Positions 8,347 to 55,860 of a stretch of 64,000 nucleotides of DNA are shown piece by piece; the first letter of the stretch is position 1, and each line of letters starts with the position of its first letter. The translations under genes were made by a program, and so were the position numbers. A model generated the notes under the pieces. That model searched no databases, was not told the origin of the DNA, and worked only from the letters and a program-made list of their open reading frames with translations. The stretch comes from Nitrospinales bacterium (GTDB lineage Bacteria > Nitrospinota > Nitrospinia > Nitrospinales > VA-1). Where the stretch lies: positions 1,696,001 to 1,760,000 of the forward strand of contig OZ253496.1 in NCBI GenBank assembly GCA_965262115.1, read 5' to 3'.

Positions 8347-8417
8347 GTCTGGCGAGCCGCCGGTGGCTGTGATACTCCCAACATTAGCTTCATGCCCCGA
8401 AGCAACTGTGTTAAATG

Positions 8418-9368
8418 TCAAGTGCTGGCAATGAGATTTTCATTCCAGAGTGTTTTTGTTTTGATCATGGTATTGATGATCGTTAATAACTTTCTCATGC
8501 ATGCGGTAATGGCAACTTTAAAGGGTTTGCCCTTTTCGATGAGGCGTGTGTAAAAGGTACGAATCACGGGATTATGCTGCATGGCAGTGACGGCGGCCAT
8601 GTATAAAGCGGCACGCACATTGGCGCGACCGCCCCAGATACACCGGCGGCCCCGGAACTTTCCGCTGTCCCGATTGAGGGGAGCGAGACCGATGAGGGCG
8701 GCGATTTGCTTCTGATTAAGAACTCCAAGTTCCGGAACCCCGGCCAAGAGGTTGACAGCCAGAACGGGACCGGCACCGGGAACACTTTGTATGATCTGGT
8801 CGTGCTCACGCCAGGCAGAACTGTTTTTGATGGTTCTGGAAAGGTCGCCATCGATTTTTCGCAAGCGTTTTTTAAGAGATTCGATATGCTCCTTAATGTC
8901 TTTACATATCCATTTTGGAGCTTGTTTTAGACGGGTTTTTTCTTTGGTCAGCATCTCGATCAACTGGCGACGGCGTGTCACTAGAGCTGAGAGTTCAAGA
9001 GATTCTTCGTCTTTGATTTTCCTGACCTCAGGACGTATGGCCTTGGCAAAATGGGCCAGCACAAGAGAATCAATGACATCGGTTTTTGCCAGTTTCCCGG
9101 TGGCTTTGGCAAAATCACGAACTTGCCGTGGGTTGACCACGGCTACTGGCAGTCGACCCGCAACCAGGGCCGAAGCCAACGGGATCTCTAAGCCGCCTGT
9201 GGCTTCCAAAACGATCAATGGAGGATTTAAGGCGGATAAACTCTCGACCAAACCAGCAATCCCTTCTTCATTGTTAGCGGTTTGCCAGGTTTCTTGAGTC
9301 ATGCTGTCAGCAACATCCAGATGGAGTTTAGAAATATCGATGCCAATAAAATGGGGTTTCTGATTCAT
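8418..9368 (-). CDS. IS110-family DEDD recombinase/transposase
   Basis: IGIDISK, LEATG, KTDVID (RuvC-like DEDD), SVPGAG, GLAP...DSGK (Tnp-domain Ser). Confidence 0.96.
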   Translation of the reverse strand: MNQKPHFIGIDISKLHLDVADSMTQETWQTANNEEGIAGLVESLSALNPPLIVLEATGGLEIPLASALVAGRLPVAVVNPRQVRDFAKATGKLAKTDVIDSLVLAHFAKAIRPEVRKIKDEESLELSALVTRRRQLIEMLTKEKTRLKQAPKWICKDIKEHIESLKKRLRKIDGDLSRTIKNSSAWREHDQIIQSVPGAGPVLAVNLLAGVPELGVLNQKQIAALIGLAPLNRDSGKFRGRRCIWGGRANVRAALYMAAVTAMQHNPVIRTFYTRLIEKGKPFKVAITACMRKLLTIINTMIKTKTLWNENLIAST

Positions 9369-9375
9369 AATTTGG

Positions 9376-9585
9376 TCTCCCAGCCTTGCCGATGCGGGCT
9401 CAGTGGCCCAGGCAACTGTTCGGGTTAATCAAAATAGGACACAACGATCTGCGCTTCGGGACGGGCTTAAAAGCCCAAGGGGTAAACGATCTATTGTGCC
9501 CTGAATCAAATCCTGGGAGCTTGTGGAAAACACAAAACCGGCTTCCCACAGGGCTCACAGGTACAACTACTACAAATTCCCCTTA
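9376..9585 (-). ncRNA. Predicted IS110 bridge RNA, copy 1 (ends approximate)
   Basis: Guides on minus strand: LTG 9478-9486, RTG 9454-9460, LDG 9412-9419, RDG 9385-9388, each pair flanking an internal hairpin. Confidence 0.8.
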
Positions 9586-9874
9586 TGAACAACATACAAG
9601 GGGTAAACTGGCAATATCTTTAACTTCTGGGCAAAAAGTTATCTCGGCTTGAGAAACTCCACTGGAACGTCATCGCGAGCTGCGGCGCGGCGATCCAGTT
9701 TTGTTTGCATCATGCCCAGAAGGGGTAAAATAAAGGCATTGTAATCTGCCACCGGCGGCTCGCCGGTTAACCCGAGATGCTGATCGAGAACAAAATGAAG
9801 ATAATGGAAATTACCAGCGGAGGTTCTCCGCCCACTAGCTGTGGAGGCAGGAGCAATGCCCATGGAGCGAGAGC

Positions 9875-42504: not shown

Positions 42505-44910
42505 CTAGTTGAGGCGGAGGCCGGGTTGTTTGCTGGACGTTTTTGGAACTGTTTTGGTTTTTTTCGGGGCGGGTTTTTTCTTGAGTTTGATTTTTTTGTC
42601 GAACGAGTGTTTGATCACATCATCCATGGTGGCGGCGGGATAAAACTGTAACCCCTTTCGGACATTTTCAGGGATATCGGGAATATCTTTTTCGTTTTCC
42701 ACAGGGATAATGAGATGGGTGATGCGGAACCTGTGAGCCGCTAGAACTTTTTCTTTGAGCCCACCGATGGGCAGGACTTTTCCGGTCAGGGTCAGTTCCC
42801 CGGTCATGGCAAGGCCAGGACGCAGGGGAGTTTTAGTCAGTGCCGAGACCAGGGCTACGGCCATGGTGATTCCGGCTGAGGGGCCGTCTTTAGGAACGGC
42901 ACCTTCTGGAATATGAATGTGGAAATCGTTTTTCTGGTAGAAGTTTTTTGGCAGTCCTAAATCCCCGGCGCGTGAGCGCACATAGGTCATGGCCGCTTGC
43001 GCCGATTCTTTCATCACATCCCCGAGTTGCCCGGTGGGCACAAGTTTACCGGTACCGGGAAGCACGGTGACTTCTATGGTGAGGGTTTCGCCGCCAAACT
43101 CTGTCCATGCCAGGCCGGTGGCGCTACCTATTTCCAGCGGGCCTTCGAATTCAGCTTTTTTGAATTTTGGGATGCCGAGATACTTTTCCAAAACAGCCGG
43201 GGTGATTTTGATGCTGGTTTTCTTACCTTTTTCTACGACGGTTTTAACCACCTTTCTACAGAGTGTGGCGATTTCCCGTTCCAGGTTTCGCACTCCTGCT
43301 TCGCGAGTGAAGTCGTGGATGATCCTGTCGAGAGCCTTGTCGGTGATTTCTATATTCTTTTTGGTCAGGCCGTGTTCGGGTATTTTTTTAGGTACGAGAA
43401 AACTTTTGGCGATGCCCATTTTTTCCTGATCGGTATAACCGGGCAGGCGGAGCACTTCCATCCGATCAAGCAATGGTTGTGGAATAGAGTGCAGGACATT
43501 GGCGGTACAGATAAAAAGGACATTGGAAAGGTCGTAATCGACTTCCAGATAATGGTCGTTGAAATTGGAGTTTTGTTCCGGATCGAGAACTTCCAGCAAA
43601 GCGGAGGAGGGGTCGCCCCTGAAATAGGCGTTCATTTTGTCGACCTCATCGAGCATGAAAACAGGGTTATGGACACCGGATTTTTTAATGCCTTGAATAA
43701 TTTTCCCCGGCAGAGCGCCAATATAAGTTCTGCGGTGCCCGCGGATTTCTGCTTCATCCCGTATGCCGCCCAGGGAGACGCGGACAAATTTCCGGCCCAT
43801 GGCTTTGCCGATGGATTGCCCTAATGAAGTTTTGCCGACACCCGGTGGACCGACCAGACAGAGGATGGGGCCTCTAATTTTTTTGACCAGCTTCATCACC
43901 GCAAGGTGTTCGGTGATGCGTTCTTTGACTTTCTCTAGCCCGTAATGGTCTCTATCGAGAATTTTCTGGGCTTCGGGGATTTTTATTTTTTCGGCTCCGG
44001 CGCCTTTTTTCCAAGGCAGGTCGGTGAGCCATTCGATATAAGTTCTGGCAACCGTGGCTTCTGCGGACATGGGTTGCATGAGTTCCAGCCTTTTTAATTC
44101 TTTGACGGCTTTTTCATGGATATCCTTGGGCATTTTGGCTTTCTTGATTTTTTGCTTGAGTTCATCCATATCGGTTTTGGACTCATCGCGTTTGCCCAAC
44201 TCTTTCTGGATAGCTTTGATCTGCTCGTTGAGATAAAACTCTTTCTGACTGCGTTCCATTGATTTTCGCACTCTGCCATGAACGCGTTTTTCAATTTTAA
44301 GGACTTCCATCTCCGATTTGAGAATGCCGAGAAGCTTGTTCAATCGGTCTGACGGATTCAGGGTTTCGAGCAACTCCTGTTTTTCCTGGGTTTGAAAAAC
44401 CATATAGGCGGCAATGGTGTCGGCATAGCGGTGTGGCTCCAGGATATTGGAACTGGCGGCCACGGCTTCCAGAGGAATTTTTTGATTCAGTTTTACATAT
44501 TGTTCGAACATCGTTCCCACACTGCGCATCAGCGCTTTGACATCTGCTGTGAGTTGGTCGTTTTCATGGATGCGGCTGACTTCTACCTCAAAATAGTCGG
44601 GGTTTTTGACGAACTTTTCAATGCGCCCTCTTTGCAAGCCTTCGACCAGAACTTTCATGGTTCCATCGGTCAGCTTGAGAATCTGCAGAATATTTGCCAC
44701 CGTTCCCGTCTCGTAGATATCTGCGGGTTTCGGGTCGTTGTTGTTGGGATTGCGCTGGGCGGAAAGGAAGATGCTTTTTTGCTCGTCCATGGATTTTTCC
44801 AGGGCCAGAATGGATTTCTCCCTGCCTACAAACAAAGGAAGCACCATGAACGGGAAGACAATGATATCCCGTAAGGGGAGGAGCGGTAACGCGATTTTTT
44901 CTGAACCCAT
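42505..44910 (-). CDS. lon: Lon protease
   Basis: [39 protein letters not shown]. Confidence 0.98.
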
Positions 44911-44914
44911 GACT

Positions 44915-46159
44915 TTAGCTTGCCTGTTTTTTGTTTTCGTAAACCAACATGGGTTTTTCGCCTTTGAGGACTACTTCTTCATTAATGACCACTTCTTCCA
45001 CATCTGGCTTGGAAGGGAGGTCAAACATGATTTCCAGCATGGTCTCTTCCAGAACGGCGCGGAGCCCTCTTGCCCCGGTTTTGCGTTCGGTCGCTTTTTC
45101 GGCGATGGTGCGGATAGCCGCATCGGTGAATTTAAGTTTTGTATTTTCAAACTCAAACAATTTTTTATATTGTTTAATCAGAGCGTTCTTAGGCTCGATC
45201 AAAACTTGCACCATCGCTTCAACGGTCAACTCTTTCAACGTGGCGACGGCTGAAAAACGCCCGACAAATTCCGGAATGAGACCATATTTGAGCAGGTCTT
45301 CCGGCTGTATTTTTTCAAAAATATCCTCCTCATCAATTTCTTTTTTGGAGACGATGTCATGTCCGAAACCGAGGCTTTTTTTGCCGATACGGCCGCGAAT
45401 CAATGAGCCCAGTCCGACGAATGCCCCGCCGCAGATGAAAAGAATATTGGTGGTGTTGACCTGAAGAAATTCCTGATGCGGGTGCTTTCGGCCTCCCTGC
45501 TGGGGAACGCTGGCTGTCGTGCCCTCAATGATTTTCAAAAGCGCCTGCTGCACCCCTTCACCGGAAACATCACGGGTGATTGAGGGATTTTCTGATTTCC
45601 TGGAAATCTTATCGATTTCATCGATATAGATGATTCCGCGCTCGGCTTTTTCAACATCGTAGTCGGCGTTTTGCAGGAGTTTTAAAATGATGTTTTCAAC
45701 ATCTTCGCCGACATAACCGGCCTCGGTCAGAGTGGTCGCATCCACAATGGTGAAAGGAACATCAAGGATTCGCGCCAGAGTCTGTGCCATGAGGGTTTTC
45801 CCGGACCCGGTGGGGCCTATCAACAGCACATTACTCTTTTGCAGTTCCACATCGTCCATGTCCAAATTAGAGTCGACTCTTTTGAAATGGTTGTGGACGG
45901 CAACAGAAAGGATTTTCTTGCAGCGGTCCTGCCCGATGATATATTGGTCGAGGTGCTTGTATAAATCATGGGGTTTGAGAAGACGCTGGAAGTCTTCGCC
46001 CTTTTCCTGGGCCCACTCTTCCACCATGATTTCATTGCAAAGCTCAATACACTCGTCACAAATGTAGACGCTGGGTCCGGCAATCAGTTTTTTGACTTCT
46101 TCCTGACTTTTCCCGCAGAAAGAACAGCGGTAATTTCCGGTGGTACTCTTCTTTGCCAT
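44915..46159 (-). CDS. clpX: ATP-dependent Clp protease ATP-binding subunit ClpX
   Basis: CSFCGK...CDEC zinc finger, [26 protein letters not shown]. Confidence 0.98.
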
Positions 46160-46207
46160 AAAGCCCTCTCCAAAAGGGGTTGGAATAGAATGCTTATTCG
46201 ATTCTAA

Positions 46208-46843
46208 TCAGCTTTTCTTTTTGCTCTTGTCGTCCTTCTTGACTTCTTTCCGCTCGCTGATCACGTTGTCGATGAGGCCATAAGCCTTGGCCTCGTCGCT
46301 CGTCATGTAGTGATCCCTTTCGGTATCCTTATTGACTTGGGAAACACTTTTCCCTGAGTGCTTGGCCATGATGCTATCGAGGATGGCCCGGATTCTGGTG
46401 ATTTCTTTAGCCTGAATTTCAATATCGGTGGATTGCCCCTGAAATCCTCCGCTCGGCTGGTGGATCATGATGCGTGCATGCGGCAGAGCAAACCGTTTTT
46501 TTGGAGCGCCAGCCGTAAGAAGCAGGGCTCCCATGCTAGCCGCCTGGCCGATGCAGATGGTTTGTACATCCGGCTTGATATATTGCATGGTGTCATAGAT
46601 GGCCATTCCGGAACTGACCTGGCCGCCCGGACTATTGATATAGAGATAGATATCCTGTTCGGGTTCATCCGACTCCAAAAACAGCAGCTGGGCGATGATC
46701 AAGTTAGCCAAATGATCATCAACGGCGCTTCCTATGAAAATGATTCGGTCTTTGAGAAGGCGTGAATAAATGTCATAAGACCTCTCGCCCCGACTGGTTT
46801 GTTCAACTACGATTGGTACCAACTGGCTGTAAGTTTCTGTCAT
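46208..46843 (-). CDS. clpP: ATP-dependent Clp protease proteolytic subunit
   Basis: [26 protein letters not shown]. Confidence 0.98.
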
Positions 46844-46967
46844 TGTTTTCTCGAGATTAGAAATTCGGCAAGGAAAAACTTCTTTCTGAATCCGGTTGCA
46901 ATTCCGAAAGGGTTTTTTGCGTGTAAGTTATTAAAAAATAATTGGATATCTTTATAATGGTTGAGTA

Positions 46968-48329
46968 TTAATTATCAGCAATTAAATCTTTTCTGTCAAC
47001 TATTTCTTCTGTTATGGTTATTTTTTCCAGCGCGGCGTCAAGGGTTTTATCCCGTTTCATGCGACTGTGAAGGCGGGCCAGGACCCCATTTTTTTCCCAT
47101 TCCCGTTTTATCTGTTGCAGGTTGCCCCCGCCCAGCAATTGGGACATGTTTTTGACCTCCTGCTCCAACTCCTCTTCGCTGACTTGTGCATCCAGGTCGC
47201 GAGACAACTGGTCGAGAATCAATTCTTCCTGCAAGGCTTTCATGGCCGGTTCGCGATACTGATCGAGCAACTCAGGAGTCACCTCGACACCGTGTTCGTG
47301 GTCATGATCGTGGCCATGATCGTGATCGTGGCTATGGTCATGTTGGCTTTCTCTACCCTGTTTTTTTCTGGCCTGTTCGACCATGAACTTGACCTGCTCT
47401 TTCAACAGCCCTTCCGGAACATCAAACTGGTTCTGTTCGGTGATTTTTTCTGTCAGTTTCTTTTTCACCGATTTGCGGACTTCCTTACGTTCGAAATCTT
47501 CCAGTTCGGAGCGAACTTTTTGTTTCATATCATCCAGGCTCGCAAAATTCTTGTCCTCCACACTTTTGGCAAACGCATCGTCCAGGCCCGGCAGTTGTTG
47601 CTCTTGAATACTTTTCAGCACAATTTGGAAATCGACATCCTTGCCGGCGATCTCCTTATTGTGGTAATCCTCGGGAATCGGCACCGTAATGTCGCGGGTT
47701 TCGCCGATTTCCATGCCGATCAGGCCCTTGTCCAGCCCTTCAATCAATTGCCCTCCCCCTGCCTGGATGATCTGGTTCGTGGCAGACCCTCCTTCAAAGG
47801 GCTCATCGCCGAGCTTGCTGGTAAAATCTATCTTTAGTAAGTCTTTATCTCGCGCGGTGCGGTCGGTCACATCGACGTTTTTTGTTTTACGCTGGCGCAT
47901 CACTTCGATAGTTTGGTTGACATCGTCATCCGTGATGCGCGGTGTTTTCATATTCAGTTCAATGCTGGAGTAGCCCTTGAGTTCTACAGTGGGGAGCACT
48001 TCGATAGATGCGGAAACAGAGATATCGGTTCCTTCTTCGGCATTGACCTCTAAAAGATGGGGTTGGCCGACCGCTCTCAGGTCTTTTTCCACAATGGTGT
48101 TATTGAGTTCATCGCTGATCAGGTTGCTCAGGACTTCTTTTTTAACAGCCGGACCAAACTGTTTTTCCAGCAGGGCGATGGGCACTTTTCCTTTGCGGAA
48201 TCCGGGAACCTTAACCTCTCGCCCAAGTTTCTGATAATACTGCTTCAGCTTTTTGTCGTATTCCTGGTGAGGGATTTCAAACTTGATTTTTTTGTTACAG
48301 GAATCAACGTCTTCGATTTCGATTTTCAT
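46968..48329 (-). CDS. tig: Trigger factor with His-rich insertion
   Basis: VPGFRKGKVP ribosome-binding motif, FKBP domain, synteny tig-clpP-clpX-lon. Confidence 0.95.
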   Translation of the reverse strand: MKIEIEDVDSCNKKIKFEIPHQEYDKKLKQYYQKLGREVKVPGFRKGKVPIALLEKQFGPAVKKEVLSNLISDELNNTIVEKDLRAVGQPHLLEVNAEEGTDISVSASIEVLPTVELKGYSSIELNMKTPRITDDDVNQTIEVMRQRKTKNVDVTDRTARDKDLLKIDFTSKLGDEPFEGGSATNQIIQAGGGQLIEGLDKGLIGMEIGETRDITVPIPEDYHNKEIAGKDVDFQIVLKSIQEQQLPGLDDAFAKSVEDKNFASLDDMKQKVRSELEDFERKEVRKSVKKKLTEKITEQNQFDVPEGLLKEQVKFMVEQARKKQGRESQHDHSHDHDHGHDHDHEHGVEVTPELLDQYREPAMKALQEELILDQLSRDLDAQVSEEELEQEVKNMSQLLGGGNLQQIKREWEKNGVLARLHSRMKRDKTLDAALEKITITEEIVDRKDLIADN

Positions 48330-48415
48330 AACTTTCCAAATATTTAAAGATTAGCGCGGAGTACCTCCGCAGGTAATTTGCAATATCTTTATCTTACCCC
48401 TTGTATGTTGTTCAT

Positions 48416-48625
48416 AAGGGGAATTTGTAGTAGTTGTACCTGTGAGCCCTGTGGGAAGCCGGTTTTGTGTTTTCCACAAGGCTCACAGGGTTTGATTCAG
48501 GGCACAATAGATCGTTTACCCCTTGGGCTTTTAAGCCCGTCCCGAAGCGCAGATCGTTGTGTCCTATTTTGATTAACCCGAACAGTTGCCTGGGCCACTG
48601 AGCCCGCATCGGCAAGGCTGGGAGA
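48416..48625 (+). ncRNA. Predicted IS110 bridge RNA, copy 2 (ends approximate)
   Basis: 5' stem-loop; LTG TTTACCCCT 48515-48523; RTG CCCGAAG 48541-48547; LDG ACAGTTGC 48582-48589; RDG CAAG 48613-48616. Confidence 0.82.
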
Positions 48626-48632
48626 CCAAATT

Positions 48633-49583
48633 ATGAATCAGAAACCCCATTTTATTGGCATCGATATTTCTAAACTCCATCTGGATGTTGCTGACAGCAT
48701 GACTCAAGAAACCTGGCAAACCGCTAACAATGAAGAAGGGATTGCTGGTTTGGTCGAGAGTTTATCCGCCTTAAATCCTCCATTGATCGTTTTGGAAGCC
48801 ACAGGCGGCTTAGAGATCCCGTTGGCTTCGGCCCTGGTTGCGGGTCGACTGCCAGTAGCCGTGGTCAACCCACGGCAAGTTCGTGATTTTGCCAAAGCCA
48901 CCGGGAAACTGGCAAAAACCGATGTCATTGATTCTCTTGTGCTGGCCCATTTTGCCAGGGCCGTACGTCCTGAGGTCAGGAAAATCAAAGACGAAGAATC
49001 TCTTGAACTCTCAGCTCTAGTGACACGCCGTCGCCAGTTGATCGAGATGCTGACCAAAGAAAAAACCCGTCTAAAACAAGCTCCAAAATGGATATGTAAA
49101 GACATTAAGGAGCATATCGAATCTCTTAAAAAACGCTTGCGAAAAATCGATGGCGACCTTTCCAGAACCATCAAAAACAGTTCTGCCTGGCGTGAGCACG
49201 ACCAGATTATACAAAGTGTTCCCGGTGCCGGTCCCGTTCTGGCTGTCAACCTCTTGGCCGGGGTTCCGGAACTTGGAGTTCTTAATCAGAAGCAAATCGC
49301 CGCCCTCATCGGTCTCGCTCCCCTCAATCGGGACAGCGGAAAGTTCCGGGGCCGCCGGTGTATCTGGGGCGGCCGCGCCAATGTGCGTGCCGCTTTATAC
49401 ATGGCCGCCGTCACTGCCATGCAGCATAATCCCGTGATTCGTACCTTTTACACACGCCTCATCGAAAAGGGCAAACCCTTTAAAGTTGCCATTACCGCAT
49501 GCATGAGAAAGTTATTAACGATCATCAATACCATGATCAAAACAAAAACACTCTGGAATGAAAATCTCATTGCCAGCACTTGA
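48633..49583 (+). CDS. IS110-family DEDD recombinase/transposase
   Basis: 316 aa; differs from copy 1 at AHFARAV versus AHFAKAI; DEDD and DSG motifs intact. Confidence 0.96.
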   Translation: MNQKPHFIGIDISKLHLDVADSMTQETWQTANNEEGIAGLVESLSALNPPLIVLEATGGLEIPLASALVAGRLPVAVVNPRQVRDFAKATGKLAKTDVIDSLVLAHFARAVRPEVRKIKDEESLELSALVTRRRQLIEMLTKEKTRLKQAPKWICKDIKEHIESLKKRLRKIDGDLSRTIKNSSAWREHDQIIQSVPGAGPVLAVNLLAGVPELGVLNQKQIAALIGLAPLNRDSGKFRGRRCIWGGRANVRAALYMAAVTAMQHNPVIRTFYTRLIEKGKPFKVAITACMRKLLTIINTMIKTKTLWNENLIAST

Positions 49584-49755
49584 CATTTAACACAGTTGCT
49601 TCGGGGCATGAAGTACCCGTGCCGGGCATAAAGATTAATGAAGAGGCCATCACAACCGATGAGGGGTCATAACATGCTGCCAATGTGCTTTTGGTGAGCC
49701 GAGAGTATCGTTGCTAGCGGTAAAAAGCTATTGCCCACTGCCTGCCCCTGCCAAG

Positions 49756-49883
49756 GAGAGCTTTGCATAACCCAAGATTCTTCGTCACCTTGCTCCTCAG
49801 AATGACAAAATGGCCCAGTATTGTCATGCTGAGCTTGTCGAAGCATCTCGGTTCTCCGATTTTTCGACTTATGCAAAGGTCTC
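49756..49883. mobile_element. 128-bp MITE
   Basis: TIRs as above; perfect 9-bp TSD CCTGCCAAG; identical to 22461-22588. Confidence 0.95.
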
Positions 49884-49896
49884 CCTGCCAAGGGGC

Positions 49897-50166
49897 TTAA
49901 ATTTCCTTGCACTCCATTTTTTCAAGCGGCTGGGCCTGGCATTCTAAAGATTCTGTCATGCCGTTCGCCACTTTAGCGCAGGCTGTGCTCATGCCCGTCA
50001 TGATTGTGTCGTCCTTGGCCATGCCTTTTACCTCCTGACACACGATCTGGTCTTTGTATTTGATACAGACTTCGCATTGATATTTATTGCCGGTCCACAG
50101 AAGGTCAATGGAAACGCTGGCAACGAAAGCCAGAAATACCAGGGTGATGATTGCGCCTTTATTCAT
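49897..50166 (-). CDS. Small exported or membrane-anchored Cys-rich hypothetical protein
   Basis: Hydrophobic N-terminus, six Cys including CEVC; co-oriented directly after orn. Confidence 0.65.
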   Translation of the reverse strand: MNKGAIITLVFLAFVASVSIDLLWTGNKYQCEVCIKYKDQIVCQEVKGMAKDDTIMTGMSTACAKVANGMTESLECQAQPLEKMECKEI

Positions 50167-52824: not shown

Positions 52825-55542
52825 TTATGATCTGGGTGTCAACCCTTCCTGCAAAAATAACGGTTCTCCGGTAACCAGAGGCCGTAGGGATTTTTTTAGG
52901 GTTTGAATAAAGTGTTCTTCATGGTTCATGATTTTTTCCACATCTTCGGGGCGCAGGTAAAAAACATTGGAAGCAGAACCCTGATTGGTGTGGAGGATGG
53001 CTTTCTGACATTCCATGTGGGCGTCTGAGAATGTTTTGGTTTCCATCATGAATGTTCCCGGCAGGTTGTGAGTCGATAATTTAACGGATCGCCCAATGGT
53101 TTTCATTTTTAATTTTACTTCCTGGAAATGCGGTTTCTCTGAAACATTAGCCACCGACCGTCCTTTGAATACAGATGCCAGCGGCTCCTGGTCAATAAAA
53201 ATTCGGTGCAGGTCGTCCTGGATACGTTGTTGGATGAAAAAGAAATCACCGTAGTCAATGGGTTTGCCGGTAGAATCGATAATTTTGAAGACATCAAAAA
53301 CCTTATTGCGTAAGGTCTGGATATTGGCTTCGACAATATCCATCTGGTTAAACGCCAGTACTGCGGAAATTTTGTGAAGAAATCCACGGGCATCCTGAGT
53401 GCAGACGATCAATTCAAAAGGTTGTCCCGGTTTAAAAAGCATTTCTGCCAAAAAAGGTTCCTGTGACCCGGTAAATTTATAATAGATTTCCAGTTGTGAC
53501 TGCAGTTCCATGGGCAGGCGGACCATCTTCAGGAACTCCAGTTTAATATGATTGGGGACACTTTTTCTTTTCTTATGGTGAAGGGTGTATTGGTAAAAAA
53601 GTTTTAATTGATCGATCTGCGAAGTGGACATATTCATTTTGGTTCCGCCACGGTCTGAGTGGGTGAGCAGGATCAGCATCTTGAGCCTTTCCTTGTCATG
53701 ATTGACGAGGTCGAGCACCATATCGTAGGTATCGTCGGCTTCTGGATCGAGAAGCATCAGGTCATACATGGTCAAATGTTTCTCTACTAAAAAAGAAACA
53801 TTGTCCACCCTTTTGGGCTTGTCGTTGTAACCCAGGTTTTTTAAAATCTGCGGAATCATTCTTGCGCCGACCAACTCTTCGTTCTGATCGCCAACTTTTG
53901 CGCCTTTGCCAATGTCATGCAGTAAAACGGCCAACTTAAGAGCTGTTTTATCCCTTTGTGAGTGATAAAGTTCTGAAAGGAAGGGGTCGGCCGTATCACG
54001 AAACTCCAGCCCGTTTAAAACATCCAGAGCGGAAAGAATATGGATGTCTGTTGGAAATTTATGTACATAAATATCTTGTAGCATGCCTTTAAGGTTGTTA
54101 AATGCGGGAATGAAATAATCCCCTAATATTCCGAACTCGTGCAACAGGCGGATGGCTTTTGAAAAATATTTCCCCCGGATATAGCGTTTGAAGCAGTTCT
54201 GGATTTCCAGTTTGGATTCTTCATCCATGCAAATGGGATCGGCCTGATCAATATGTTGTTCAATGGCACGGGTCACTTCGTAGGACAAATAATAATTCCT
54301 TTCAGCGACCCAGATGAAAACCTTGAAGAACCATAAAGGCTCCTGGAGGTACAGGCTCTTGGGGTTTTTCTCAAAGTAAATTTGATTCTGCGTATTGAGG
54401 GAGAAGAACTCTGAAAGGCCTTTCTTCTTTTTGGTGTCTACCGCCATGCTCTCCCAGTAAAGGTTCCGGCTGAACCGCTTAAGGGGATAAACAGCATCGA
54501 AAAAATATTTTTGGAAAAAGGTCCTAACATCAAATCCCATAGACTGGGCAATCTTTTCCCGGACTTCATAGCTCATGGTATCCCGGTGGGTCCCTTTCTG
54601 GAAAGCGTGCAGGAATAAACGGACCCGGGATAAAAGGTGAAGCCCGTTTTGCATGCTTTTATAAGCCAGTGGGCTCAACAAGTTCTTGGAAAACAATTCG
54701 TTGAGCAGTTCAAACTGGTTGGTGGTTTTCAGGTTTCGCAGGAAACGTACAGAAACCAATGCCCAGTAGAGGCGGCGCATTTCTTCCTTAATGTTCGGTT
54801 CCTGTTGAAAGACAGTATTCTGGACTTGATAGCATCCTTCATGGCTCAGGCAGTGCTTTTGAATTTCGTCGTGATAAAGCAGGCTGACCGTTTTAATGGA
54901 ACTTTTAAATTCGTTATAAACCAGAGAGTTTCCGGCTACAAAGCGATGTTCCAAAAGTGCTAAAAACTCGGGAACCCTGGAAGGGTCAAGATCCCGCTCA
55001 AACGTTTCGTTTTCGGTGTAGCAGGCATTGCTGGAATAAGGGAAAATATCCTGAAAAACAAACAGGTACTCGAAATGCCGGATGATTTCCTCAGCGGTTT
55101 TTTTGTTGTTCTCGCTAAGAGATGATTGTGAAACGATTTGGATATCCACGTCCGACTGGAAATACATTTCCTCTCTACTATAACCACCCCGGGCCACTAT
55201 GGCTATGGGGACGGACTGTGTGGTCCACTTCCGGTTATTCTGGTGATTGAAATACCAGACTGCCGAATAAAAGCTGGCTTGAACGAGCGTGTCCACCAAC
55301 GCGGTTTGCTTGAGCAATAGCAGGTGGCAGTTGTCGGATTTGGTGCACTCTTTCTGAAGCAGGTCGGTTTCTTTATGGACCAGATCAATAGCTCGGTCTT
55401 TAAAGTCTAAATAAAATTTCTGCGAATCGATTTCACCGTTGTCGGACGATTGTCTTGCTTGATGGAGAGAAACTACTTTTTGTTGAAGTTGGTGCCGGTA
55501 TGTTTCTGCATGCTTGCGGTTTGATTGATATAGATCACTCAT
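52825..55542 (-). CDS. glnD: GlnD-like PII uridylyltransferase/uridylyl-removing enzyme (divergent)
   Basis: ARGGYSR...SDVD nucleotidyltransferase motif, LLHDIGKG HD domain, ACT-like C-terminal region. Confidence 0.78.
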   Translation of the reverse strand: MSDLYQSNRKHAETYRHQLQQKVVSLHQARQSSDNGEIDSQKFYLDFKDRAIDLVHKETDLLQKECTKSDNCHLLLLKQTALVDTLVQASFYSAVWYFNHQNNRKWTTQSVPIAIVARGGYSREEMYFQSDVDIQIVSQSSLSENNKKTAEEIIRHFEYLFVFQDIFPYSSNACYTENETFERDLDPSRVPEFLALLEHRFVAGNSLVYNEFKSSIKTVSLLYHDEIQKHCLSHEGCYQVQNTVFQQEPNIKEEMRRLYWALVSVRFLRNLKTTNQFELLNELFSKNLLSPLAYKSMQNGLHLLSRVRLFLHAFQKGTHRDTMSYEVREKIAQSMGFDVRTFFQKYFFDAVYPLKRFSRNLYWESMAVDTKKKKGLSEFFSLNTQNQIYFEKNPKSLYLQEPLWFFKVFIWVAERNYYLSYEVTRAIEQHIDQADPICMDEESKLEIQNCFKRYIRGKYFSKAIRLLHEFGILGDYFIPAFNNLKGMLQDIYVHKFPTDIHILSALDVLNGLEFRDTADPFLSELYHSQRDKTALKLAVLLHDIGKGAKVGDQNEELVGARMIPQILKNLGYNDKPKRVDNVSFLVEKHLTMYDLMLLDPEADDTYDMVLDLVNHDKERLKMLILLTHSDRGGTKMNMSTSQIDQLKLFYQYTLHHKKRKSVPNHIKLEFLKMVRLPMELQSQLEIYYKFTGSQEPFLAEMLFKPGQPFELIVCTQDARGFLHKISAVLAFNQMDIVEANIQTLRNKVFDVFKIIDSTGKPIDYGDFFFIQQRIQDDLHRIFIDQEPLASVFKGRSVANVSEKPHFQEVKLKMKTIGRSVKLSTHNLPGTFMMETKTFSDAHMECQKAILHTNQGSASNVFYLRPEDVEKIMNHEEHFIQTLKKSLRPLVTGEPLFLQEGLTPRS

Positions 55543-55860
55543 TATGGAGCACCAAACTAAAAAGTCATTGAGCCTGATCAAGAGATCATGAACAGGTTAT
55601 TCATAGCCATAAAAGCCGTTTCAGGATAAACCTAAAATCCTGGGAATTCAAGAGTTTACTGGCCAGAGGCTCCTCGGCGGAGGGCCAATGAGCAATAACT
55701 TTATCTGGCGAGCAAAGAGTTGTCTCGGCTTGAGAAGCCCTTGCCATTTGCCACCGGCCGCTGGCCGCCGGGCCCCGCCCGGTTGGAACAAGGCAATGTC
55801 TTTATCAAGTGCTCTAACTGTGTGACGGCCCAACGGACTTTTGTCTAATTGCCTCTCTCG

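Follow-up and report, generated by a model that had tools for sequence, protein, structure and literature searches.

The bridge-RNA systems described for IS621 and ISCro4/IS622 (PMC11208160, PMC11208158, 10.1101/2025.05.14.653916) carry guides in the order left target (LTG), right target (RTG), left donor (LDG) and right donor (RDG), with a common strand logic, a CT core, a junction promoter and four A-N4-G motifs. Their LDG has 8 nt, their 9-nt discontiguous RDG has a G-T wobble at donor T12, handshake bases are present, and the recombinase has the DEDD residues and the serine. The IS110 element of a Nitrospinales bacterium that we describe here is similar to them in all these features. With IS621 it also shares the right donor half TGTAT, going by the residue names of the structure paper, and a palindromic repeat as the target, which is the REP in the case of IS621 (PMC11208160, PMC11208158). 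However, the protein is distant (ISCro4, 2.4e-33, and IS621, 1.5e-30, are its only two PDB matches), and donor positions 6-7 and the target differ. Compared with IS621 proper, the LTG probably has 8 nt rather than 9 and the RTG 7 nt rather than 4, which places the element outside the narrow IS621 type.

ISPpu10 of Pseudomonas putida comes closest in described behaviour (10.64898/2026.03.19.712850). As reported there, it has the same guide geometry, with six LTG positions beside the CT, of which the distal ones are loose, and five strict RTG positions, as well as a REP-type target and a junction promoter. In that report integration was higher with the target stem-loop than in its absence (43.85%), and four of five RTG exchanges abolished activity. 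The likeness, which is one of guides and target, ends at the hairpin, since the ISPpu10 stem-loop is located on the 5′ side and pairs with the left target half, whereas the hairpin of our element spans the core and the guide reads its loop base.

The seekRNAs of ISEc21/ISEc11 (PMC11187229) are similar in that the target is chosen by an RNA derived from the non-coding end. The same paper describes natural retargeting between relatives (ISEc11/ISXne4 and ISEc21/ISMch6) and IS110 elements landing inside IS3. Unlike our element, the ISEc21 type has proteins of 345–385 aa and inserts without duplicated bases, and the IS1111 group has subterminal inverted repeats (7–17 bp) and a downstream RNA in a long right end (PMC11187229). 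The IS1111-group layout is absent here, with a right end of 15 nt and the guides in the left end. Among 85 plasmid rows listed, the closest named element is an IS110 of enterobacterial plasmids labelled ISEc32, by annotation only, with 43.7% identity over 97% of the protein. Bridge RNAs have been predicted for thousands of IS110 elements, with 5,511 target pairs (Durrant 2024), and in one ortholog screen in human cells product was obtained from 18 of 72 and measurable activity from one. We found no published description of a Nitrospina IS110; ISfinder and supplementary ortholog tables, which lay beyond this search, may list the element or a near relative.

The window, that is the whole analysed stretch of 64,000 nt, contains the element on the plus strand at 48402–49598 (1197 bp). 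We are highly confident that this is an intact IS110 with a predicted bridge RNA in its left end, and that this RNA likely guides the recombinase into the TTC-loop variant of a hairpin repeat. Its ends, the duplicated CT core, the intact catalytic residues, the many near-identical copies, the guide-site matches and the covariation across relatives are observed directly. The element starts with the right donor half TGTAT and ends with the left donor half ACAGTTG, and a CT core is present at the left (48400–48401) and at the right junction (49599–49600). The left target half TACCC (48395–48399; CTTACCC when read as 7 nt, 48393–48399) forms the head of a hairpin repeat of ~40 bp. The right target half TCGGG follows the element together with the remainder of the interrupted repeat, inside which a second repeat head is nested (49601–49654); all of these features are on the plus strand.

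The ends are fixed by empty and filled IS3 pairs and by end counts over the genome. IS3 copies of the same genome measure 1290 bp when empty and 2489 bp when filled with the intact IS110, hence the insertion comprises 1197 bp and one extra CT with no other duplication. The stretch TCGGGGCATGAA was considered as a piece of the right end and was ruled out, since it occurs in empty sites. The left end of 231 nt (48402–48632) and the right end of 15 nt past the stop give the long-left/short-right layout of the IS110 group. A second copy in the window (8403–9598, minus strand, 1196 bp) has its 316-aa ORF intact, and its guides and junctions are identical, in line with the initial annotation. In contigs of two other runs a unique left flank is joined to the element and the guides are unchanged.

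In the 2.68-Mb genome there are 24 element matches longer than 1100 bp, 26 left ends and 26 right ends. The guide stem is found in 24 places: 15 have the intact 316-aa frame, six have a 10-bp deletion (264 aa), two belong to a broken paralog of 88% identity and one is a left-end fragment. At G000:C1 2144619–2145993 a 163-bp left-end fragment is joined to a full copy at its own TTGTGTC-CT (equivalent to window 48557–48565). This junction matches only the core and the right donor half and resembles the half-match products of IS621, an assembly error being possible. At G000:C1 2518280–2519443 two short left-end pieces face each other with a right-end piece alongside. The element in the window lies a short way upstream of a gene run that, judged by its translations, is tig, clpP, clpX and lon (window 42505–48329, minus strand; 49667–49912; 52825–55581, minus strand). 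Other short intergenic repeat families (D2–D7) flank the element.

The recombinase (48633–49583, plus strand) has 316 aa. Its residues D11, E55, D97 and D100, S235-G236 and the wedge Y256/M257/V260 correspond to the named catalytic and wedge residues of IS621. PF01548 and PF02371 are matched above cut-off, and NCBIfam NF033542 scores 226.8 bits against a cut-off of 140. Among 90 homologues D11, E55, D97, S235 and G236 are invariant, D100 is present in at least 90%, and the wedge residues Y256 and M257 are conserved with V260 as the exception. Judged by its sequence, the protein is a member of the IS110 group, with the DEDD RuvC domain and the Tnp domain with the catalytic serine. Similarity to it reaches E <= 1e-50 in 7,992 of 8,000 scored candidates, and the nearest named ones are Nitrospinota IS110s. 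The initial annotation called the protein compact. However, 316 aa is an ordinary size, within the 315–330 aa given for the IS492/IS621/Piv branch.

The predicted bridge RNA begins with a 5′ stem-loop (48439–48489, −35.7 kcal/mol). The target-binding loop module follows (48500–48564), with outer stem arms at 48500–48507 and 48557–48564, an inner hairpin at 48525–48538 and the A-N4-G motifs A48509/G48514 and A48534/G48539. The donor side contains the hairpin GGGC/GCCC (48592–48605). All these features lie on the plus strand. The four A-N4-G motifs given for IS621 (A43/G48, A67/G72, A116/G121 and A150/G155), which mark the flipped A and the syn G of the internal loops, are all present in the left end. 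The likely ribosome-binding site GGGAGA (48620–48625) shares bases with the 3′ side of the donor-loop stem and could be masked by RNA folding.

The motifs first read by eye are all in place: TTTACCCCT at 48515–48523, the hairpin at 48525–48538, CCCGAAG at 48541–48547, ACAGTTGC at 48582–48589 and CAAG at 48613–48616. The reading built on them, an intact IS110 with guides in the IS621 order, a CT core and a target of its own, is borne out by the motifs, the conserved residues and the guide-site covariation. When the left end of 231 nt was resampled 200,000 times under a Markov model, no sequence had all four guides in order, and single guides occurred in 0.7% and 2.0%. The extent of the guides has to be revised. 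The left target guide was proposed to have 9 nt, but in the A-N4-G register T48515 takes the linker position of U49 in IS621, thus leaving TTACCC-CT (48516–48523). Over 22 families, the base found there agrees with target position 1 at a rate of 0.10, where 0.25 is expected. Hence the left target guide probably has 8 nt, with position 1 unguided and position 2 loose. We also considered the 9-nt form in the flanks and rejected it: T is found at position 1 in 7 of 13 filled flanks that are in register, versus 7 of 28 empty sites (p 0.09). Position 2 shows no selection (6 of 13 versus 13 of 28, p 1.0).

The right target guide CCCGAAG (48541–48547) has 7 nt, and its A48545 stands opposite target position 10, the variable loop base. 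It is followed by the target-loop handshake guide CG (48548–48549), whose C is predicted to pair with G7 of the donor once the strands are exchanged; the C-G form occurs in 18 of 19 families. On the donor side, the left guide ACAGTTGC (48582–48589) precedes the right guide, which is not the 4-nt CAAG initially read but the 9-nt ATCGGCAAG (48608–48616). It pairs discontiguously with CT-TGTAT with one G-T wobble, which is the IS621 form. G48612A gives its Watson-Crick form and is found in the paralog and in the X7/X8 contigs. The donor-loop handshake guide GC (48617–48618) has a G that would pair with target C7, and among 19 families this pair is G-C in 12, T-A in 6 and G-T in 1. All guides are on the plus strand. 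The length of the right target guide is also less special than thought, since all five positions beyond the core match in 12 of 17 families and naturally longer RTGs are already reported by Durrant 2024. In the relatives with parsed guides, 8 nt on the left and 7 nt on the right is the clade norm. That the recombinase would be programmable we infer from knowledge of the family.

The fold of the left end was examined together with relatives. The 80 related loci form 41 families by DNA identity, and the alignment consists of the element and 20 relatives, one per family. On these 21 sequences RNAalifold returns both internal loops unprompted. In the named two-loop structure 95.4% of the cells are paired and 16 of 25 pairs have two-sided changes; none of 500 shuffles scores as high, and slid controls give 38–47%. 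The single sequence taken alone partly closes both loops (MFE −45.7 versus −33.7 kcal/mol with the guides forced open), with half of each donor guide paired. The two-loop fold is supported by covariation in the alignment, and the lone sequence departs from it in part. Rfam returns nothing at gathering score on the left end. A weak sX15 match is antisense to the predicted bridge RNA (window 48486–48642, minus strand, 35.4 bits against a gathering score of 55). According to the source paper, sX15 is complementary to asX7, the two lying on a plasmid, with 10 homologues in Stenotrophomonas; this pair may represent a bridge RNA that went unrecognised together with an antisense partner. The cyanobacterial relatives L017, L020 and L025 have an extra piece of ~25 bp within the left donor guide region.

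Agreement between guides and sites was followed over the same loci. Guides and flanks were parsed by a regular expression, by which the core and the stems are fixed and the tested bases are free. The left test covers 50 of the 80 loci (22 families; 30 left out for no parse or flank) and the right test 42 of 80 (17 families; 38 left out for the same reason). Related families in these tests are not phylogenetically independent, and L022 parses better in another register. Identity at left positions 1–7 is 0.10, 0.47, 0.75, 0.89, 0.93, 0.84 and 0.98, and at right positions 10–14 it is 0.85, 0.93, 0.85, 0.79 and 0.83. None of 5000 family permutations reaches the observed value for positions 3–7 and 10–14, compared with 136 for position 2 and 4914 for position 1. 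The proposed covariation of guide and target is thus found at 0.75–0.98 on the left (positions 3–7) and 0.79–0.93 on the right. In 19 of 19 families the donor-loop handshake base can pair with the base at target position 7, and two Watson-Crick forms of this pair occur; the target-loop handshake is pairable in 18 of 19. The LDG and the left donor change together among relatives, as read by eye from the aligned rows.

The target is the head of a degenerate repeat of ~40 bp, TACCCC-TNC-GGGGCA...ATCAC, with 269 heads in the genome under a broad pattern. We found no Y1/RAYT transposase able to move it in a Pfam search of the genome, which is 93.9% complete. The target (T/C)TTACCC-CT-TCGGG, read from the two window copies, is correct for both of them. 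Over the genome, however, only 4 of 17 non-redundant left flanks have the full 7 nt, and the shared part is TACCC-CT-TCGGG. TACCC-CT is in register in 13 of the 17 distinct left flanks and slipped by one base in three, and one flank is without a left match; selection at positions 1-2 is not significant.

Empty repeat sites are spread over all loop bases (A 42, G 39, C 30, T 28). The main-type copies with readable guide and right end all place CCCGAAG at CT-TCGGG (21 of 21). Among non-redundant main-type right flanks the T-loop is found in 15 of 15, versus 38 of 119 in the pool (p 4e-9). The p value is 4e-8 when a single ambiguous fragment, a truncated copy whose right flank is one base shorter, is scored as a miss. 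The element occupies the TTC-loop variant of the hairpin repeat and likely chooses it via the RNA guide. The effective specificity would be about 12 bp, and the deciding base in this genome appears to be target position 10.

In an IS3-family element of the same genome the orfA/orfB junction contains the ~40-bp repeat in 17 of 17 copies having the left half, 10 of which hold IS110 (e.g. G000:C1 L082 is empty and L083 is filled). When the repeat is present, the −1 frame past the A6G run reaches a stop ahead of orfB. In total 10 IS110 left ends and 8 right ends lie inside IS3, and 7 IS3 copies are empty. Three of these 7 have the changed target TTCGTGG for TTCGGGG (right halves at G000:C1 411143, 603574 and 1658755), which mismatches the right guide; in these small numbers it is possibly an escape from IS110 insertion. 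Contact with IS3 is seen in 6 of 6 copies that have the 10-bp deletion and whose left end is readable, compared with 4 of 15 intact copies (p 0.004), which suggests that a dead IS110 allele spreads as an IS3 passenger. Flanks are swapped between IS110 copies and between IS3 copies, and most IS3 copies are without target duplications. The swapped flanks point to recombination or rearrangement between copies or to mis-assembly, so flank counts only approximate insertion events.

Close relatives differ in the guide base opposite the loop: it is A in the main type, C in the paralog, G in G016, G019, G013, L160 and L169, and T in L186. Both copies of the 88%-identical paralog have the guide CCCGCAG at the site CT-GCGGG. 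They share one right flank and thus represent one insertion event. L160 matches fully, with the guide CCCGGAG at CT-CCGGG. The fit in L169 and G013 needs wobbles or leaves a mismatch, and L186, with CCCGTAG at CT-TCGGG, is a mismatch. G016 has the guide CCCGGAG and ends at TCGGG and GCGGG. G015, whose guide is unassembled, has 17 ends, among them TTGGG three times, CCGGG twice and TAGGG once. All four guide bases occur and would hint at a strict partition of the loop variants, but the position-10 rule is not kept cleanly among these relatives. A metagenome pattern scan with 30 matches gave three whole bridge RNAs that parsed and 24 matches with no parse; L167, L175 and L180 start like the guide region of the element and then are cut or diverge. 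The more distant L087, L089, L090, L091, L093 and L095, of the same family or order, occupy other palindromic repeats (ATCCCC-CT-CACCC; GTCATT/C-CT-GAG or GAA). Repeat targeting looks general in the clade.

Pairing with the guide may be only part of the recognition. The guide could give the address while the target hairpin or protein contacts are needed as well, which would supplement the explanation above and make the element less reprogrammable than IS621; we regard this as possible, if rather unlikely. All 26 right ends in the genome fall within the hairpin repeat, as do 20 of 20 in G013, G015 and G016 (where five free bases followed by G and next by G/C were a condition of the search pattern). 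Palindromic repeats are also the sites of many relatives, and the effects of the stem-loop and of RTG exchanges in ISPpu10, cited above, point the same way. However, the 28 of 28 empty TACCCCTTCGGG sites continue with GC like the repeat, so that the effects of sequence and of structure are not separable in this genome. Base pairing within the hairpin joins the two target halves over the core and should therefore compete with guide pairing, unlike the 5′ stem of ISPpu10, and the right guide varies freely in the clade, with 19 distinct sequences.

The T-loop bias itself might be mostly inherited, with few insertions multiplied by IS3 carriage, copy recombination or gene conversion and with weak discrimination at position 10. 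The 10 left ends on one IS3 half, the 8 right ends on the other and the swapped flanks would fit such a history, as would the IS3 contacts of the deletion copies and the mismatch of L186 and of one G016 end with their own guides. We consider it improbable, since 17 distinct left and 17 distinct right flanks remain after collapsing, position 10 matches in 0.85 of 17 families versus 0.26 by permutation, and the guide change of the paralog is matched by its own site. Finally, the guide-like matches could be relics or coincidence and the protein alone could select the target, the bridge RNA being a prediction from sequence. The chance of this is negligible given the guide-site covariation over 24 left and 19 right distinct guides, the structural and handshake covariation and the conserved junction promoter.

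With guide-directed insertion as the preferred reading, the following cycle is proposed. By analogy with IS621 and ISPpu10, the element would exit as a circle, either cut out or copied out, a point which is debated for IS110 in the literature. The joining of the ends would then bring TTGACA and TATGTT together at 17 nt. The predicted −35 box TTGACA (49580–49585, plus strand) overlaps the TGA stop codon and has at least five of six matches in 28 of 33 families. The predicted −10 box TATGTT (48404–48409, plus strand) has the form TAnnnT in 33 of 33, its first three letters being forced by the search motif. When the ends are joined in silico, TTGACA-17-TATGTT is a predicted sigma70-like promoter, and the boxes are paired in the circular form only. 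A promoter scan of the linear left end gave no site, as expected if the promoter needs the junction. No end-to-end joint of a circle is present in 8 contig sets, from which rare forms are dropped, and one run, guessed to be RNA, covers 49201–49418 only. An RNA of ~215 nt would be transcribed from about 48416. Its donor loop would pair with ACAGTTG-CT-TGTAT and its target loop with (T)TACCC-CT-TCGGG. As in IS621 and ISPpu10, a recombinase tetramer would then exchange strands at the CT via Ser235, aided by the handshake bases C48548 and G48617.

The element is a clean new example of a described bridge-RNA system, and its 7-nt right guide and small size are ordinary for the clade. It adds little as a discovery but makes a useful specimen, with ends fixed by empty and filled pairs, 15 intact copies and a paralog with a compensatory guide change. 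The clade is broad, about 50–85% identical, its 6+CT+5 guide geometry is readable by eye, and it is a candidate for ortholog screens. It also gives an example of an insertion sequence landing in a host mini-repeat and riding inside IS3. What is of further interest is a guide that naturally varies by one base against a hairpin loop, and a target centred on the apex. We suggest tentatively, at somewhat less than an even chance, that the Nitrospina-type IS110 lineage diversified at one guide base, dividing among its members the loop variants of a mobile hairpin mini-repeat, with the core at the hairpin apex in a geometry unlike the 5′ stem-loop of ISPpu10. If true, nature would here provide a retargeting series with steps of a single base, in which one could ask directly whether bridge recombination is gated or hindered by a hairpin over the core.
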